Assembly: GCA_964016885.1 (NCBI GenBank)
Contig: OZ024743.1
Coordinates: forward strand, 2,418,001 to 2,482,000
Source: Eledone cirrhosa
Taxonomy: Eukaryota
Direction of reading: 5' to 3'
DNA: 64,000 bases
Below are positions 140 through 25,374 of the stretch, in pieces. Positions within the stretch are counted from its first letter, which is position 1. Each line of letters starts with the position of its first letter. The position numbers and the translations under genes were made by a program. The notes under the pieces were generated by a model that did not search any database, was not told the DNA's origin, and saw only the letters and a program-made list of their open reading frames with translations.

Positions 140-275
140 AAAAGAGTCAAGACACCGACGGCTGAGCTCCGGCCGATTCGACAGCTAGATCTGAACCAAT
201 ATATATATATATATATATATACATGCATATGCACGTGCATACACACACATATATAAATTAATACCATCAATATAT

Positions 276-959
276 ATAAAAGGGTATGGATATTTCAACA
301 GGCACTAGGTACCTATAGAAATATGCAAGGTCTTCATAATAGTTGTGGTTCGATGGTATTAATTTGAGATACCAGAACTATAAAAATGAGCGGAGCAAGC
401 AATTATCAAACAATTATAGAACAGGTGATTATTTAAATTGATTTTTTAAATTATTTAAAGAATTGTTTGATAATTGCTTGCTCCGGTCATTTTTATTGTT
501 CTGGTATCTCAAATTAGTACCATTGAACCACAACTATTATAAACACCTTGCATATTTCTATAGGTACCTAGTGCCTGTTGAAATATCCATACCCTTTTAT
601 GATTTTTCTCCTTATGTAGAGAACAAAAACGTTGTATCGTGCTGCTGGTTTTAGTGGCATGATCAACAAGTTTATAATAAAACAGCTCTTACTTGCGGCC
701 TGATTTTGCGTATGTGTCATTTTAACGGCCTGACCGCATGTGTTAGGCAGGAAGCGAAATATTGACTTACTGTGAGATTAGCAACCTTATAGTATGGAAA
801 TAAGCTGTCTGAAGATCTAATTCTTTCCATTGGAAATTCTCTGGATTTCCAATCTTTGGATTGGTGAAACCGTCGGTAACAGCAATAGAACAGGTGATTA
901 TTTAAATTGTTTTTTAATTTATTTAAAGCATTGTTTGATAATTGCTTGCTCCGCTCATT

Positions 960-960
<1 letters not shown>
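276..960 (+). mobile_element. ORF-less PLE-type/retrozyme-like unit (~470 nt period) with HHR and 5' inverted arm
   Basis: Inverted arm 276-415 vs 461-600; direct repeat ATAGAACAGGTGATT...GCTCCG at ~416-492 and ~885-960; HHR at 804-883; flanked by (TA)n. Confidence 0.7.
804..883 (+). ncRNA. Type-I hammerhead ribozyme
   Basis: GCTGT-CTGAAGA-long stem II (inner ATTGGAAATTC/GGATTTCCAAT)-GAAA-CCGTCGG-TA-ACAGC; stem I GCTGT/ACAGC; GUA triplet. Confidence 0.85.
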
Positions 961-1047
<87 letters not shown>

Positions 1048-2329: not shown

Positions 2330-2887
2330 TGAATGTTCATAATACCAATCTATATCAGAAAACTATTATTCCTATCGCAAATAACTTCTCCAATCCAATT
2401 CCTTCTATAAATAACACTAGGTCACTTGTTAATAACTCTGTTAATTTCTCTAATCGTAATTGTAATTGCCCTGTTAGAACTAAATGTCCTCTTAATAACC
2501 AGTCTTGATAAAAACTTAGTCTATGAATGTAAGGTTATAACTGATACCAATTCCTTTACCTATTTCGATTCCACCTCCACTTCCTCCAAAGCTAGATTTT
2601 ATAATCACAATTCGTCTTTTAGATACCAACTTAAAAGAACTAACACGGCACTCTCGGAACTCATATGGTCCTTGAAAGACAAAAATATTAACTATATCAT
2701 CTCTTGGAGAAAGGTTTGTTCTGCCTTTCCTTACCTGAATTCTTCCCTATCCAGAACATGTAATCTCTGCCTAGCCGAGAAATTTACCATTATATCTAAT
2801 TTCAATTCTATAATAAATAGACGCACGGATTTATTTTCTCTCTGCTTGCATAAATTCCACAGAACATTCCATAAGGTATACAGTTAA
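2330..2887 (+). pseudogene. Penelope-like element GIY-YIG endonuclease fragment (frameshifted)
   Basis: NCNCPVRTKCPLNNQ|LDKNLVYEC...YFDST..SKARFYNH...CNLCLAEK...INRR...CLH across ORFs 2200-2508 and 2426-2887. Confidence 0.9.
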
Positions 2888-3825
2888 TATCTCAATACCT
2901 TACTAGTTTAAAATCCTTTTTCTCAAAGGCTTATATATCTTTTACAAATATACCCATCTTTCTACCTTATTTCAATATTATATATTATATAATACAATTT
3001 ACTCATTCTATATCATTCCTCTTTATCATTTTCCTTTCTTCCTTTTTTCTTTTTAATTTCTAACCTCTAATCTGTACTTTTTCTTCCCAACTACTTCTCA
3101 ATTCTTATTATTACTCACCACAACATTATCCATTCTTCCATCTTTCCTCATATCATTGGCCATAAAAATTATTTTTTTAATACATTATAGTATTACCATT
3201 AGAAGTCCTTCGTAAACATATAATTTTTTGACGTTAGGTTTTTTTTCTTCCTAAAAATGTTCGTCTCCCCCATCCTTTCATGCTCGTTTTAAACTACTAC
3301 TTAATTTGACTTTTACATATTACAATACATAAAAACAAACTTAAACCCTAACTAATTTCTTTTAATATATTATATTATTACCATTAGAAAATATTTCGTA
3401 AACATATATACTTTTTGATGTTAGATATTTTCTTCCTTAAACATTCTTTTCTTCTTTCCTTCCGCGCTCATTTTAAACAAACTATTTACGTACACATATT
3501 ACATTACATAAAAACAAACTTAAATCCTAACTAATTCCTCTAAATTCATAACTCATTCATTCTTCTCCTTCTTTTCACATTATATCCTTAATAACATTAA
3601 TATTTTTATTTTAATAATACATATTAATAAATTCTTTTCCTCGCACATATTATTAAACCCTTCAATATACAAACCTTAATTTAATACTATTCTTAATTCT
3701 TTTTTCTTCATGCATAAACCTGATTAACTTTTAATTTCAAAATCTTTTAAATTATCTATTATCTTCCAACGGCTTTTTAATTTCTCTCTGTGAGACAATA
3801 TATATTTTTTTCTCAGTTGTAAAAG

Positions 3826-11541: not shown

Positions 11542-12234
11542 TTAGCCATCGGGCTTTAACACTGGCTTAAAGTGTTTGAAAGTTGCAAAGTTCTTCTGCA
11601 TGCAGTTCGGGCAGTGTTCAGAGAGTTTGTTCAGTAGCGGGCCCTTGGCGAATAAAATTTCGTAGCTCTCTGAAATACAAAGGTCGCAGCCCTTGTGTCC
11701 TCCGTTGTAAGAGCGCGCTTACTGGAGTATTTTCCATTTAAGCGTGAAGGGGGTGGAGTTCCTTTTGAGGTCCCAAACGTAGGAGGCGAGTGTTGTCTGA
11801 TTTGATTTATCCGGTCTTCTGAAGGAGTGGGTATGGGCATACCAACGGGTCTTAAACTTGTTGGAGGTCATGCCGATGTAAGTTTTTTTGCAATCCTCGG
11901 TGCCTGAGATGACATCGCATTTGTATACGATATCATTTGTGAGGCATTTGTTTTCAAGTGGGCATGCTTCCTTATTTAGGCAATTACATAGAACCCCAGT
12001 CCGGGGATTGATTTCGGAGGTGGTTGGCTTATTTAATTTTTTAGAATTGTGGTTGGCTATATTCCTAGCTAGGTTAGGTGTGGTGGAGTAAGACAGTCTT
12101 ATTGTGTTCTTGTTAAAGATGGTGTGGTACCTATGTTGTATGGGGAAGTGTAATTTCAGTAAAGTGAAGAAAATCCTAGCTATCGGAGTAGATACCTCTC
12201 TATTGAAGGGAGGGTTGTACCAGCTAATCTGCCT
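11542..12234 (-). pseudogene. Penelope-like element C-terminal fragment (RT thumb/linker plus GIY-YIG), one internal stop; missed by the ORF track
   Basis: Manual translation: SWYNPPFN...LSYSTTPNL...[22 protein letters not shown]...TYIGMT..FKTRW..H...KWKILQ*ARSY...CDLCISE...LLNK; TAA at 11719-11721. Confidence 0.92.
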
Positions 12235-15239: not shown

Positions 15240-18202
15240 ATCGATTTTCCGGGCGCCCGTGTCTGTAGAGCTTGTCTCGAACTGGTAGAGCTCCTCAGTA
15301 GCTCTGCCAGGCCAGGGACTTTTGGAAGTTGTCCATGGGTCCCGGGCGGAAGGTTCTACCGAACAGACTGGCCAGTTCGTCTTCCTCTACGCCTAGAGTT
15401 TCTCCGAGCGCGTCGTCGCACTTGCTGTGGACCAACCCTCTATAGAATGACGAAGTGGAGTCTTCACTGATCGCCGGGTCCGCCTGCCAGAGGGCTGTGA
15501 GCGCCTGAGCACATTCGATGTGCCAGTCGCCATTTTCCTCGGTCTTTACTTGACCCAGGACTGCAGCTCGGTCAGCGAGACGAGTCGTGGGAATGCTCAC
15601 CTCACGAACGGAGCCCACACCGGTTGTCTGGTGAGGAATGCGTGGAGGTGCCGCAGCCTGAGCGCGTGTTTGCGCATCGTCAGCCACGGCATCGCCAGCC
15701 CTCCGTTTGAAGAGTGTTGGCAGCAGATGGATCTTCTCACCAAAGGAGCCCGCTTCTTCCAAAGGAATTGGAAGAGCGCGCGCTCCATTTTGGTGAGCGT
15801 TTTGGCTGGACAAGGCATGCCGGTCAAGCGGTAGTAGATGGCGGACGCTATAAAAGTGTTCGCCACCTCCGCTCGACCTTTCAAGGATAGTTTGCTCTCG
15901 GCCCACTTCTGGGTGAGTGCAAACACCTTTTCCGTCACTTCGTTCCAGTTCTTCTCCACCTGGAGGTCCGGACCAAACCAGACCCCGAGCAGCTTTACCG
16001 GTCCTTCCGTCCAGCATCCGACGACGCCATCGTAAAGCATCGGTCTGCCTCTCCACGATCCGAGTTGCAAACCGATGGACTTGTCCCGGTTCAGCTTCGC
16101 TCCTGTGAACCTTTCGTATTCCTTCAGTAAGGTGCCAACTTCCTCGATTTGCGAGGTGCTCGACACCATTACTGTCACGTCGTCGGCGTAGGCCGACGCC
16201 CCTTTCCGCATTGACAGTTCCAGAGGGATGCCCTGCAATAGCTCCAACTTCCGCAGTAGTGGCTCGAGAGTCAGTACGTATAGAAGGGAGGAGAGAGGGC
16301 ATCCCTGTCGGATGGATCGCGTGATATGGAACGGCTCTGACAGGTAGCCGTTCATCTTGGCCCTTGCAGCAATCCAGCCCCTGAATACAGGTCTGAAGCC
16401 TGCGGCCTCGAGCACTGCATCCAGGTAACGATGGTCAACCCTATCGAAATCCTTAGACTGATCCAAGTTGATTAGGACCCCACCGAAGCCGGGTTTACAC
16501 CCTACCCTCTCTATGATGTATCGCATGAGGTGGAGGTTGTCGTGTATGGACCTGGTCGGGATTGCGTATGTCTGCGCTTCTCCCACCAGGTTTTCGACGA
16601 CAAGCGCCAGCCTCTTTGCCAACACCTTGGCCAAAATCTGTAACTCTGTGTTTAGCAGAGTTATGGGCCGGAAGTTGCCTATGTCATCCCCCTTATTCTT
16701 GTCCTTCCTGAATAGTGTGACTACGCCCCTAGTCACAGAAATGGGAATTCTCCCGGTCTGCTGCCAGTTGCAGTAGACCGCTTCCAGGAAACCGGAGAAC
16801 AAGTCCGGCATTGCTACGTAAAATTCGTAGGGTAGACCGTCGAGACCTGGAGATTTGCGTTTTCCGCATTGGCTCAGCGCGTCCCCTATCTCAGCGGCTG
16901 AAATCGGCTTTTCGCAGAACTTCGCCTCGCTGTCCGAGAGTCGCGGTAGGCCGTCGAGGTATGGACCGAAATCCATAGCCCCTCCCGGCGCCGCCCTGCC
17001 CGAACAGCTGAGAAAAGTGCCGCTGAAAGGCCGCGCACATCTGCTTCGGCTCACGTGTCACGCGTCAGTCTTGGTCCTCCAAAGACCGAATCGTGGACTT
17101 GTTGCCACTTTTTGCCTCCGTCACCCGGGCCCTGCTAACAGCTTTGGCTCCCTCCTTACTCAGAGCACGTATTTTGCTTCTGACAACGCAGCCCTCGTTC
17201 TTTGCGTCGAAGAACTGGTCCAAGGCCGTTCTCGTTGCTTCCACTTCTAATTGCTTCTTCTACTTTATCTGTCAGTTCCTTCTCGGTCCTATTACTATTT
17301 AACGCTAATTCTTCACTAAAAACTAACGAGTCTAATCTAACTGCTGTCTTGAGAGAGTACCACCATCTGTTGTTGACAGTGGCCCCTGTCAAGTGCTGTT
17401 TAACTAAAGTGCTAATCCGTCTACTGTAGGCTTTGCATGTCGGTAACGACAAGTTCAGCTTCCAGTAGCCGGGTCCTTGTCTATGGGTTCTATCAAGGTT
17501 GACCATGCTGGTCACTAGTTTGTGATCTGAATAGGCAACCATGAACATTTGTGGACAGCTTAACATGTCCCTATCTTCATTTCTAACTAGAACCCTATCT
17601 AGGTACGATCTAGATGTTCCGCCAAGATTAGTCCACGTCCACGGTGGCACAGTCAGAAAATCTAGTCGATATCTATCGGCCAGGTCAAATCGGCCGATTA
17701 ACTGTTTGAGGCTGTTACACCCCCCTTTATCAGGACATGCTCCCACATAGTCCCAACGTGCATCTAGGATTCCTTTCCAGTCCCCCACTAAAAGCAAGGA
17801 ACGGGACGTTCCCAGAAAAGTTTCTAGACGTTTGAAGAAGTCTGGCCGCGGTGTCCCGGATGGGACATATGCAGCCACCAGCCTGAAGGCTCCACCTTCA
17901 CTACCGTCAACGATTAGGACCACCAGTCGACCCTCCGGGTCCAGATGTATCGTCTGTGTTACGAGGTCCAGGTGTTTCCGCAGCAAAACGGCAACCCCGC
18001 CCCCACCTCCCGGCTGACAGAGAGATGCGTAGACCTCAAAGTCGTCAAAGATGGGGGCCAGCTGTCGCTCGCTGTGGATCCTGGACTCGCAAATTGCTAC
18101 TGCATCCATACTGTGCGATCTGAGGTCGTTTAAGAGTTTGCTCTGTTTCCAGGGCATCCCCAGGCCGCGTACATTCACACATCCAACTCTTATATTAGCC
18201 AT
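15240..18202 (-). pseudogene. LINE ORF2: APE endonuclease (17156-18202) and reverse transcriptase (15597-17054), frameshifted
   Basis: NVRGL, ICES, VGDW, YLDR, SDH, YWKLN; KSPGLDG, NFRPITLLN, LDQSKDFDRV, RQGCPLS, YADD; C-terminal LAWQSY*GALPVRDKL. Confidence 0.93.
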
Positions 18203-18217
18203 GTTGGTGCTGAAAAG

Positions 18218-20166
<1,949 letters not shown>

Positions 20167-20715
20167 GAACGAATGCAAAATTTTGTTTAGAAATTTTTTT
20201 TCACCGAAGAAATTTTTCAAACGAAAATTCCACCCCAGGCAAGGGTGAAGCTGAGTTGACCCACCGTCTGAAAGTCCAGGTGTGGGGTCAAGCTATAAAA
20301 TAGTATCAAATTTAACAATAAATTTTTGATTTCTTACTTAGAAAATCAACAAAAACTTACCAGCGAACTGGCACGCACACATCTGCAGATACAGATAGAT
20401 AGATAAATAGATAGATATGTATGTTTGTTATATGCACGTTCCACTGAGGAAGTTATTACTACCTCGGTTCGTCAATTCGACATATTTGTTATATATACAC
20501 ACAACCCACACACCTATATATATATATATACACACACACACAAACACGTACACACAGAGACAAACACTAACATATATGCACACACACACTAGTATCTTCG
20601 ATGTAGCAGGAAGCTTTTAGTATTAGAGGAGGAGGGGCGAGGAGATGTTAATATCTAAGTATATGAAATACAGTTACCTTCCTCAGCTCTGCATTTATTT
20701 CTTGATACACACACA

Positions 20716-21000: not shown

Positions 21001-21147
21001 TATTTTCCGTTGTGTTGTAATATAAATATTACACACAGTAGATTATCAGCTCACGTAGAGTTTGCTCGACGGTTCCAGTTGTAGTTCCAAAAGTAATCCG
21101 GAGAAAAATAGAAAGATTTGAATGGATACAGTTTAGTTGAAAGGAAT

Positions 21148-21267
21148 TTATTGACACGTGTTTCTATAACAGTTACATAACCTAAAACAGCTGCTATCTA
21201 CAAACTTTTAGTTATGCAGACATTCAATATTTCAATGTTATTATTTACTGTCATTTCATCAGAATAA
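21148..21267 (-). ncRNA. Type-I hammerhead ribozyme with extended stem II
   Basis: Inverted copy of 25175-25294. Confidence 0.75.
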
Positions 21268-21842
21268 TATTACTGAGGACCTATTTAGTTTTTATAGAGA
21301 ATATTAGGAGGGGGGGGGGGTGAAGTTGTTAGAAGAATAGTTGAAGGAGTGGTTTTTCGATAGCAGTGAGAATTCTTGGTGGCAGTGAGTAATTAGATTC
21401 CCATCTGTTGTTTTGACATTTTTTATAGAATATATTATTGGTTATTTTTCTAAATCTATAGAAGGATTAGAGATAGTAAAGATATGCGTGGTTGGTTTTG
21501 TGTTTGCACTTAATTAACATTCAGACTTAAATTTTTCTTTCAAGTGTAAGTATCCTTTCACACACGCATTCACACACAAATATATTTGCACACCTCTACA
21601 AAATACATATACTCACAATTCACATATTCATACTTACATATATATACACATGCATACACATATATATACACACATGTATTCATGTACATACATACGCGCT
21701 CATGTGTATACATTTTCATACTCAACTTATCTTTATATACACACGTATAGACACACACATATATACATACATACTCTAGTCCATGTGTACACACATACAC
21801 ATACATACACATCTATATACACACATATACATACACATATAT

Positions 21843-21919
<77 letters not shown>

Positions 21920-22308
21920 CATATACACACATATATACATATATATATATATATAAGCACTTTAATACATGAATACACTTACATCTAACTATACACATCA
22001 AACATATATATATATTTACTTATTTATATACATTTTCACATATATATACATACTTATGGACGTTTTTAGACACATTCATTATCACATATTTGCACCTATT
22101 CTCATCAGCATATCTTTCCATTATTAGTGTGGTAATTTAAGGTTATTAATATATGTTGAGAAGAGATTGTTTTTATATTTTTCTAACTAGATTAAGGTTT
22201 ATATAGTTGGGGGATGTCCCTCTTTTATGTAATATTCGGCTTGTAGTGGGAAAAAAGGGTTTTAGTTCTGTGACGGCAGAATAATGTTCGTTCAATTCTG
22301 TTATTCAG

Positions 22309-24242
22309 TTGCACTACATACAACAACTTCATTCGAAAAGAATTACATAAAAAATATAGAAAAACGAGTGAAGTAACCCTTAAGCACATCAATGATGAGG
22401 CATGCGAAATAGTGAAAAATCTCGGAATCGAAGATAGGACAGGACCACTCTTACCGGCGGTACCCACCTTCAATCTTAAGGACCACAAGGTAAACTTTGA
22501 TAATGACCCTAAAATTAGATTAATCTGCCCCTCTAAATCAGATATAGGTAAAATAAGCAAATATATCTTAGATAGAATCATCCCCCAAATTAAGGCTAAG
22601 GTTAACATTAAACTCTGGGGGAAGACCCAAGAAGCAATAAGATGGTTTAATAGCATTAGCAATAAGAATAAATCTAAGTTTATCCAGTTTGATATCGATG
22701 AATATTACTCATCGATATCACCTGAAACTTTGAATAGAGCCATTAAGTTTGCTAAGGATAACTCTGACCTTACAAACGATGAAATTAAGATTATATTAGA
22801 AGCTAGGAAAACTATAGTCAAATTTGAGAACAGTTATTGGGTACGTAAAGATAGACCCTCTAACTTTGACATAACAATGGGCTCTAACGATTCGGCGGAA
22901 ATAACTGATATTGTGGAGTTATTTATCGCCTTTAGACTCCAGGAAAAATTCAGCAATCTCCACGGCGGAATATACCGCGACGATGTTCTCCTCCTAGCTA
23001 AAAACCTTAATAACCAAAAACTAGAAAAACTACGCAAAGATATAAGAAAACTACTACTCGAAATAGGACTAACTATAACATATGAATACAACCTTAAAGT
23101 AGTTAACTTCCTGGATGTCACACTCAATTTCAACTCTGGTTTGATTAAACCGTTTCATAAATTGAATGAAAATCTCAAATACGTAAATGTTGGGTCTAAC
23201 CACCCCATCTCTATAATTAAATCTATCCCTAAAAATATTTCCCTTAGAATCTCGGGTCTATCTTCTAACATACAAGTATTTAAGGAACACGCCGAGTACT
23301 ACGATAACGCCCTTAGTAAAGCAGGCTACCTCAACAAAATAGAGTACATAGATGGGAACAATCAAAACACCCAAAATAAATCCCACATAGGTAGATATAA
23401 TAACACAACACCAAACCACACTTACTACCATAGTATGCACACCAGTAAACCAACAAACAAAACTAATAGAAAGCGATGCAAAGAGTACTTATGGTATAAC
23501 CCCGAATACAATAGTTCCATTAGTACAAATTTACCAGTACTCTTCTTTAAAATAATTAAAAGACATTTTCCCACATCACACAAATACCACAAAATCCTAA
23601 ACCCTACCACTATAAGACTGTCATACTCTACAGCGTTAAACCTTGAACAACACATAAAAAAGATCAATACTAGAAGGTTAAACGAAAACACTAAGAACTT
23701 AAGTACAAAGAACACAAAAAAAATCAGTAGACAATACGCTACAGAACATAAATAAACCACACCTAAGTTCGTCCGCAATACTACTCCAGAGAAAACCCAA
23801 CGTACACAACTGTAACTGCACCTATCCTGACAACTGCCCCCTCGGCAGTAACTGCCTGGAAAAAAATATTATTTATAAGTGTACCATTAAATCCGGAGGC
23901 AACGAGTGGTATTACGTGGGATCAACGGCAACATCGTTTAAATCTCGATTGTATAGGCATTCTTACTCAATAAAACACCAGAGCCAAAGAAATGTAACAA
24001 CTTTAGCAGAAAAAGCTTGGACGCTCAGGGATAACGATAAAAAGTTTACCCTAAAATGGGAGAAATTAGCTAAAACCCAAAGCTTTTCCAGGAGCCAAAA
24101 TTTCTGCAAATTGTGTAATCTTGAGATTTATTACATAATCACACACAAGAAGAAACTGCTGAATAACAGAATTGAACGAACATTATTCTGCCGTCACAGA
24201 ACTAAAACCCTTTTTTCCCACTACAAGCCGAATATTACATAA
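22309..24242 (+). CDS. PLE reverse transcriptase plus GIY-YIG endonuclease (single frameshift at the A8 run 23716-23723; N-terminus truncated)
   Basis: FDIDEYYSSI, MGSNDSAE, YRDD, FLDVTL, SNHP, WYNP; then CNCTYPDNCPLGSNCL, IIYKC...YVGST..FKSR, CKLCNLE, LLN, CRH. Confidence 0.92.
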
Positions 24243-24557
24243 AAGAGGGACATCCCCCAACTATATAAACCTTAATCTAGTTAGAAAAATATAAAAACAA
24301 TCTCTTCTCAACATATATTAATAACCTTAAATTACCACACTAATAATGGAAAGATATGCTGATGAGAATAGGTGCAAATATGTGATAATGAATGTGTCTA
24401 AAAACGTCCATAAGTATGTATATATATGTGAAAATGTATATAAATAAGTAAATATATATATATGTTTTATGTGTATAGTTAGATGTAAGTGTATTCATGT
24501 ATTAAAGTGCTTATATATATATATATATATGTATATATGTGTGTATATGTATGTATA

Positions 24558-24606
<49 letters not shown>

Positions 24607-25174
24607 GTGTATGTATATGTGTGTATATAGATGTGTATGTATGTGTATGTGTGTACACATGGACTAGAGTATGTATGTATATATGTGTGTGTCTATACGT
24701 GTGTATATAAAGATAAGTTGAGTATGAAAATGTATACACATGAGCGCGTATGTATGTACATGAATACATGTGTGTATATATATGTGTATGCATGTGTATA
24801 TATATGTAAGTATGAATATGTGAATTGTGAGTATATGTATTTTGTAGAGGTGTGCAAATATATTTGTGTGTGAATGCGTGTGTGAAAGGATACTTACACT
24901 TGAAAGAAAAATTTAAGTCTGAATGTTAATTAAGTGCAAACACAAAACCAACCACGCATATCTTTACTATCTCTAATCCTTCTATAGATTTAGAAAAATA
25001 ACCAATAATATATTCTATAAAAAATGTCAAAACAACAGATGGGAATCTAATTACTCACTGCCACCAAGAATTCTCACTGCTATCGAAAAACCACTCCTTC
25101 AACTATTCTTCTAACAACTTCACCCCCCCCCCTCCTAATATTCTCTATAAAAACTAAATAGGTCCTCAGTAATA

Positions 25175-25294
25175 TTATTCTGATGAAATGACAGTAAATA
25201 ATAACATTGAAATATTGAATGTCTGCATAACTAAAAGTTTGTAGATAGCAGCTGCTTTAGGTTATGTAACTGTTATAGAAACACGTGTCAATAA
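25175..25294 (+). ncRNA. Type-I hammerhead ribozyme with extended stem II
   Basis: TTATT-CTGATGA-(A)ATGACAGT...ACTGTTAT(A)-GAAA-CACGTG-TC-AATAA; GUC triplet. Confidence 0.8.
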
Positions 25295-25326
25295 ATTCCT
25301 TTCAACTAAACTGTATCCATTCAAAT

Positions 25327-25374
<48 letters not shown>

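Follow-up and report, generated by a model that had tools for sequence, protein, structure and literature searches.

We describe a family of short, non-coding hammerhead repeats in the genome of Eledone cirrhosa whose insertions carry Penelope-type signatures: truncation, tandem copies, an inverted arm, and a tail. The family is likely reverse transcribed, and integrated at (TA)n tracts, in trans by the reverse transcriptase (RT)/GIY-YIG protein of a Penelope-like element (PLE), probably from a circular monomer RNA. Dispersed non-coding hammerhead repeats of this kind are animal non-LTR retrozymes, an already known class, and the family shows the testable features of the metazoan members of that class, i.e., a conserved hammerhead and a small, non-coding, head-to-tail unit.

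The hammerhead unit and its relatives

The family was recognized from one insertion in the window (the whole 64,000-nt stretch of DNA analyzed here). The insertion reads from unit position 185 back to position 46 (inverted), then from 1 to 469, and then from 1 to 81. Its parts and flanks are as follows:

268..275, (TA)n target remnant, left side (read from the sequence)
276..415, minus strand, inverted, 5'-truncated second arm, unit positions 46 to 185, 96% identical to 461-600, with the tail and fixed 3' end B on its outer side
416..884, plus strand, one full 469-nt non-coding unit
497..600, plus strand, 104-nt "tail" between fixed 3' ends A and B
804..883, plus strand, type I hammerhead, predicted cut after A878
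885..960, plus strand, 76 nt that repeat the start of the unit and stop at fixed 3' end A
961..980, (TA)n target, right side (read from the sequence)

End A corresponds to unit position 81 (window 496), and end B corresponds to unit position 185 (window 600). The sequence-only reading had described a non-coding hammerhead unit with a direct repeat, preceded by an inverted arm, and each of these elements was confirmed. A repeat search of the window recovered the inverted pair (276-415 and 461-600, 140 nt, 96% identity) and the direct repeat, in which the stretch from 416 to the 490s recurs at 885-960 with a spacing of 468 to 469 nt. The longest ATG-initiated frames, with the unit junction included, encode 17 amino acids (aa) in the sense direction and 50 aa in the antisense direction.

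A motif scan found a single type I hammerhead in the insertion (276-960), with CUGAAGA at 809-815, GAAA at 866-869, and GUA at 876-878. Stem I pairs 804-808 with 879-883 (GCUGU/ACAGC). Stem II is long (817-864, ~50 nt) and has a U.U base pair at its foot, as does the axolotl hammerhead HHR_Amex2 (PMC7229834); the sister families described below have a canonical G-C pair there. Stem III (869-877) is short (3 bp) and self-complementary, with a predicted duplex energy of -13.3 kcal/mol, and such a palindromic stem is consistent with the way metazoan hammerheads are described to fold as dimers (PMC4209133). Rfam gave no hammerhead match at the gathering threshold and four unrelated matches below it, so that the ribozyme is recognized by its motif and by covariation. 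The predicted active fold (-19.6 kcal/mol) lies 3.3 kcal/mol above the minimum-energy fold (-22.9 kcal/mol).

Conservation of the motif was followed in 49 near-full units that fall into three subfamilies, 85 to 91% identical to each other. The 80 nt of the ribozyme contain only four subfamily-diagnostic columns, and these form stem II pairs 818-863 and 820-861; the density of such columns does not differ significantly from that in the rest of the unit (4/80 versus 45/389, P = 0.11). Within the ribozyme, 24 cells of the alignment were changed on both sides of a pair, a result reached in 0 of 500 shuffles. Among 189 stem I sequences, GCUGU/ACAGC occurred 127 times, GCUUU/AAAGC 14 times, and GCUAU/AUAGC 5 times, the compensated variants being contributed by the sister families. 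The hammerhead core was intact in 76 of 87 copies that had not been picked by the hammerhead pattern, in a search that itself demanded a near match. Pairing in the predicted ribozyme is preserved through compensatory changes between subfamilies and sister families, with the covariation reflecting a few inherited events in related sequences rather than many independent ones. Changes to both partners also turned up in other hairpins of the unit (overall, in 10 of 95 pairs), and whole units folded as circles were far more stable than shuffled sequences in six of six cases (z, -2.6 to -6.3).

Copies were collected from several searches. The first look at the genome returned 1,979 candidates, the best 40 of which were scored; an exact 21-mer gave 132 matches (control, 0), and patterns combining a 3' end with TA gave 56 and 122. 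Loci picked by whole-unit similarity, by the hammerhead, or by a 3' end plus TA amounted to 179 insertions with 253 arms after duplicates and locus L024 were dropped, which is a partial, query-biased sample of the family. Most full copies measure 457 to 470 nt, and the family unit is ~467 nt. Eight tandem pairs spaced 459 to 470 nt apart, and no triple, occurred among the 100 matches listed out of 132, although exact patterns and collapsed assemblies could conceal long arrays. Sister families (loci L235 to L294, L152, and L157; 167 and 146 exact pattern matches) have matching stretches 67 to 90% identical to the unit, a period of 466 to 491 nt, and the same two ends. The earlier suggestion of an undescribed retrozyme holds in part: the class has been published, including its proposed PLE origin, and a search of the openly available literature found no paper on the family itself.

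Other hammerhead-like sequences were noticed in the window. A second family with the core CUGACGA...GAAACUAGUA lies at 1656-2233 and ~14029 (elsewhere at L302:1744-2169 and L113); it has 42 cores in the sequence examined, which at two loci lie 423 and 425 nt apart on the same strand, and inverted arms with unequal outer ends, and it is probably another retrozyme-like family. Further minimal hammerhead-like motifs were located by the motif scan at ~1147 (minus strand), 4207, 4670, 13165, 14919, 25424, and 25669, several of them in palindromic stumps.

Insertion ends and the RNA template

The 3' ends of the 253 arms fall at two sites 104 nt apart: 135 at A (unit ~81) and 97 at B (unit ~185). The other 21 lie elsewhere, some of them in arms that continue into other sequence or whose ends are slightly eroded. 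Most of the A and B ends (222/232) adjoin (TA)n, a share inflated by the TA-anchored search patterns; in an earlier set chosen without TA, the share was 131 of 138. Target-site duplications are unreadable within (TA)n. The 5' ends, in contrast, are scattered around the unit. Twelve lie within 10 nt of the predicted cut (10.8 expected), and none of the 253 arms begins exactly on it; an enrichment of 5' ends at the cut was therefore rejected. The variable permutation points anticipated by the sequence-only reading were thus found for the 5' ends but not for the 3' ends, and no fixed 5' end or pair of long terminal repeats was seen in the 179 insertions. That reading had also noted that the direct repeat begins ~7 nt after the cut, and had taken the insert for about one cleavage-to-cleavage monomer plus ~75 nt. 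The repeat does start at the seventh base; since 5' ends near the cut are not enriched, we attribute this offset to chance, and the monomer interpretation loses its support. Small clusters of 5' ends occur at unit positions 15, 123, and 137 to 139, which are TA-like microhomologies, and at position 452, the 3' foot of stem II and a possible site of RT pausing. Apparent ends near unit position 330 in L016 and L024 were discarded, as these are one duplicated locus broken by other sequence.

Single-arm insertions number 106, and variable 5' truncation, partial tandems, and inverted 5' arms are all present. The 71 head-to-head two-arm insertions (one tail-to-tail and one three-arm locus being excluded) comprise 53 with one arm ending at A and the other at B (A+B), 2 A+A, 1 B+B, and 15 with an unclassifiable end. 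A+B thus accounts for 53 of the 56 classifiable inverted insertions (P = 4e-13 against 50%), and a search of the openly available literature found no paper with such a counted rule. Arms in the three same-end exceptions diverge by 0.083, 0.091, and 0.151, compared to a mean of 0.043 for 45 A+B insertions (P = 0.005), as for separate events. The two arms of one insertion differ by about 5% and agree at 1,058 of 1,166 bimodal (subfamily-allele) sites, versus 48% for random pairs. Central joints overlap mostly by 0 to 6 nt, and 42 of the 53 B arms pass site A. These counts imply one start site per strand, with A and B as the putative start sites of reverse transcription.

The cut site is spanned by 187 of the 232 A/B arms, and 72 of the 253 arms exceed one unit, the longest (L024) reaching ~3 units; a linear cleaved monomer was therefore not the usual template. 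We judge it rather likely that the template was a circular RNA, because arms reach up to three units in the absence of long arrays among the matches listed and because 5' ends do not pile up at a start site. The same non-autonomous, PLE-dependent element could instead have been copied from an uncleaved linear transcript of two or three units, with no circle involved. Seamless crossing of the cut site is equally expected from uncleaved RNA, the active hammerhead fold is not the minimum-energy fold, unprocessed RNA served as template for an anole PLE in vitro (PMC11167929), and 8 of 9 Xenopus retrozyme dimers did not cleave (bioRxiv 10.64898/2026.07.22.740005). However, a linear template would leave unexplained not only the lack of a 5'-end pile-up and of long source arrays among the matches listed but also the maintenance of ribozyme pairing by compensatory changes; moreover, mutually similar upstream flanks sit at different unit positions, and upstream and downstream units show no strong recurrent difference except for a U-run at end A. 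We consider a linear template possible but doubtful. Contigs of unrecorded type in two runs from one sample contain the unit junction together with (TA)n flanks, as genomic DNA would, and are uninformative on RNA.

With a circular template, the insertions could arise as follows. Transcripts of two-unit loci would be cut by their hammerheads, probably paired as dimers through the self-complementary stem III, and then closed to a circle by ligation. Once the PLE protein had nicked the two strands of a (TA)n tract, cDNA synthesis would begin from U-rich sites inside the RNA, with site A used for one strand and site B for the other. The stopping point of each cDNA would vary, in some cases lying beyond a full round, and short microhomology would then join it either to the target, giving a single arm, or to the other cDNA, giving a head-to-head insertion such as that in the window.

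Penelope-like elements in the same genome

An autonomous PLE in the same genome has intact frames of 785 to 798 codons, a (TA)n target, and a 113-nt tail that sits 51 nt upstream of the ATG. A frameshifted copy of this young element, with a 1.2-kb inverted arm, occupies 21108-25334 of the window; others are at L297 to L302. The 785-aa protein had no Pfam or PDB match, and a PLE fragment had only one Pfam match, below threshold. The 785-aa protein is assigned to PLEs because clusters of similar proteins carry HTH_animal (31% in the first), GIY-YIG, and RVT_1 and because of motifs known from the literature. Truncated fragments of the PLE endonuclease region from other families were seen by eye at 2340-2900 (plus strand) and 11719-12200 (minus strand), as was a LINE-like element at 15295-20292 (minus strand), whose frames resemble an endonuclease and an RT and which has another open reading frame (ORF) upstream.

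All five copies of the autonomous PLE with both ends visible are A+B. Since this element obeys the same rule, we ascribe the rule to the PLE machinery at work here; it links the family with that machinery and is no evidence for a circle, and we rejected its use as proof of one. The unit had no nucleotide match to the one autonomous PLE family examined. Alignment of the tails gave P = 0.35 for this unit and P = 0.008 and 0.066 for two sister units; GAACnACAACT, a motif picked out by eye as common to both tails, was set aside because the alignment is not significant for this unit.

Alternatively, the ORF-bearing copies of an autonomous PLE might have escaped the searches, and the copies seen might be its pLTRs (truncated at the 5' side), which is part of the outcome that the sequence-only reading itself had named as refuting it. 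The anatomy is indeed that of PLE ends, PLE fragments are abundant (60,490 candidates in the genome), and only the best candidates of the searches were scored. Nevertheless, no ORF-linked copy was found among the 179 insertions examined, nor did the 60 sister-family loci bear this reading out. The 72 arms longer than one unit traverse it whole and reenter it without an ORF, the sister families have the same closed period, and the 300 nt upstream of the 106 single arms contain no match to a PLE protein. An ORF for RT plus GIY-YIG between pLTRs is absent from the copies examined, and the PLE ORF fragments in family loci are downstream, opposite, or distant. In the one close case (L252), a unit lies head-to-head with a PLE ORF, but a (TA)n tract separates the two, which are thus independent insertions; L061, considered as a 4-kb autonomous unit, proved to be two separate insertions. 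For the copies seen, the pLTR interpretation is already largely refuted, and we regard it as very improbable overall. It is extremely unlikely that the family is a DNA-level element (a MITE, a Helitron-like element, or satellite fragments) whose hammerhead-like motif is incidental: inverted repeats and an AT-rich target are present, but the length of the inverted arms varies, their outer ends being fixed and their inner ends variable, 106 insertions are single armed, and the stems covary as RNA pairs, G.U included.

Relation to known systems and significance

Mobilization of metazoan non-LTR retrozymes by PLEs was proposed by Cervera and de la Pena (2020; PMC7229834). As with the elements in that report, the family unit is non-coding and AT-rich, occurs head-to-tail, has one type I hammerhead, and coexists with PLEs; circular RNA is predicted for it. 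The units described there are 150 to 450 nt long and form long arrays, whereas those found here are 457 to 491 nt long, occur mostly as dispersed insertions of 0.1 to 2 units, and have a clear PLE-type tail, an inverted arm, and a ~50-nt stem II. Li, Clavereau, and Pollet (bioRxiv 10.64898/2026.07.22.740005) sampled 31 vertebrates, 3 insects, and 1 coral and presented non-LTR retrozymes as non-autonomous PLE derivatives on the evidence of co-occurrence and, in Xenopus, of pLTR homology. The class and its proposed PLE origin are the same here, and our unit falls within their range of 51 to 972 bp. Unlike in Xenopus, there is no homologous pLTR in the one PLE family examined, and the link is the insertion signature.

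Insertions of EN+ PLEs, as characterized in PMC3846280 and PMC8557442, share with the family 5' truncation, partial tandems, a head-to-head inverted arm, a tail at one end only, and an AT-rich or (TA)n target; the family differs in having no ORF and in a tail of 104 nt rather than 30 to 40 nt. The one-end-only rule known from those insertions is counted here, at 53 of 56. In vitro, the PLE tail is delimited by two RT start sites inside the RNA, and two such sites may likewise operate in the family; that in vitro study saw no strand difference in start site, in contrast to the one site per strand implied by our counts, and found that the anole PLE could do without cleavage and mainly copied RNA that was uncleaved (PMC11167929). 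Non-autonomous Chlamys elements such as MRC1 resemble the family as non-coding PLE dependents with pLTRs and head-to-tail copies, but they generally resemble an autonomous family at the 3' end, a likeness that our unit does not show to the one PLE family examined, and their clade is described as lacking canonical hammerheads (PMC8557442).

PLE mobilization of animal retrozymes has hitherto been proposed from co-occurrence and homology. Here, insertions of a non-coding hammerhead family bear the same signature as those of an autonomous PLE residing in the same genome, i.e., two ends separated by ~100 nt, each represented once in an inverted insertion, and a (TA)n target. We offer tentatively, at a little less than even confidence, that the family is a long-lived lineage of circular ribozyme RNAs of ~470 to 490 nt that is under selection for RNA structure, has no surviving coding parent, and parasitizes PLE proteins. 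How the tails and inverted repeats of PLEs arise is a question to which the counted A+B rule is relevant. If our interpretation is correct, the insertions show a PLE complex priming two target strands from two sites on one RNA and copying overlapping stretches of it, which would explain both the tail at one end and the inverted-pLTR architecture. The family would then offer a minimal template for reconstituting that architecture, and its 467-nt length makes the question testable in the existing in vitro system.
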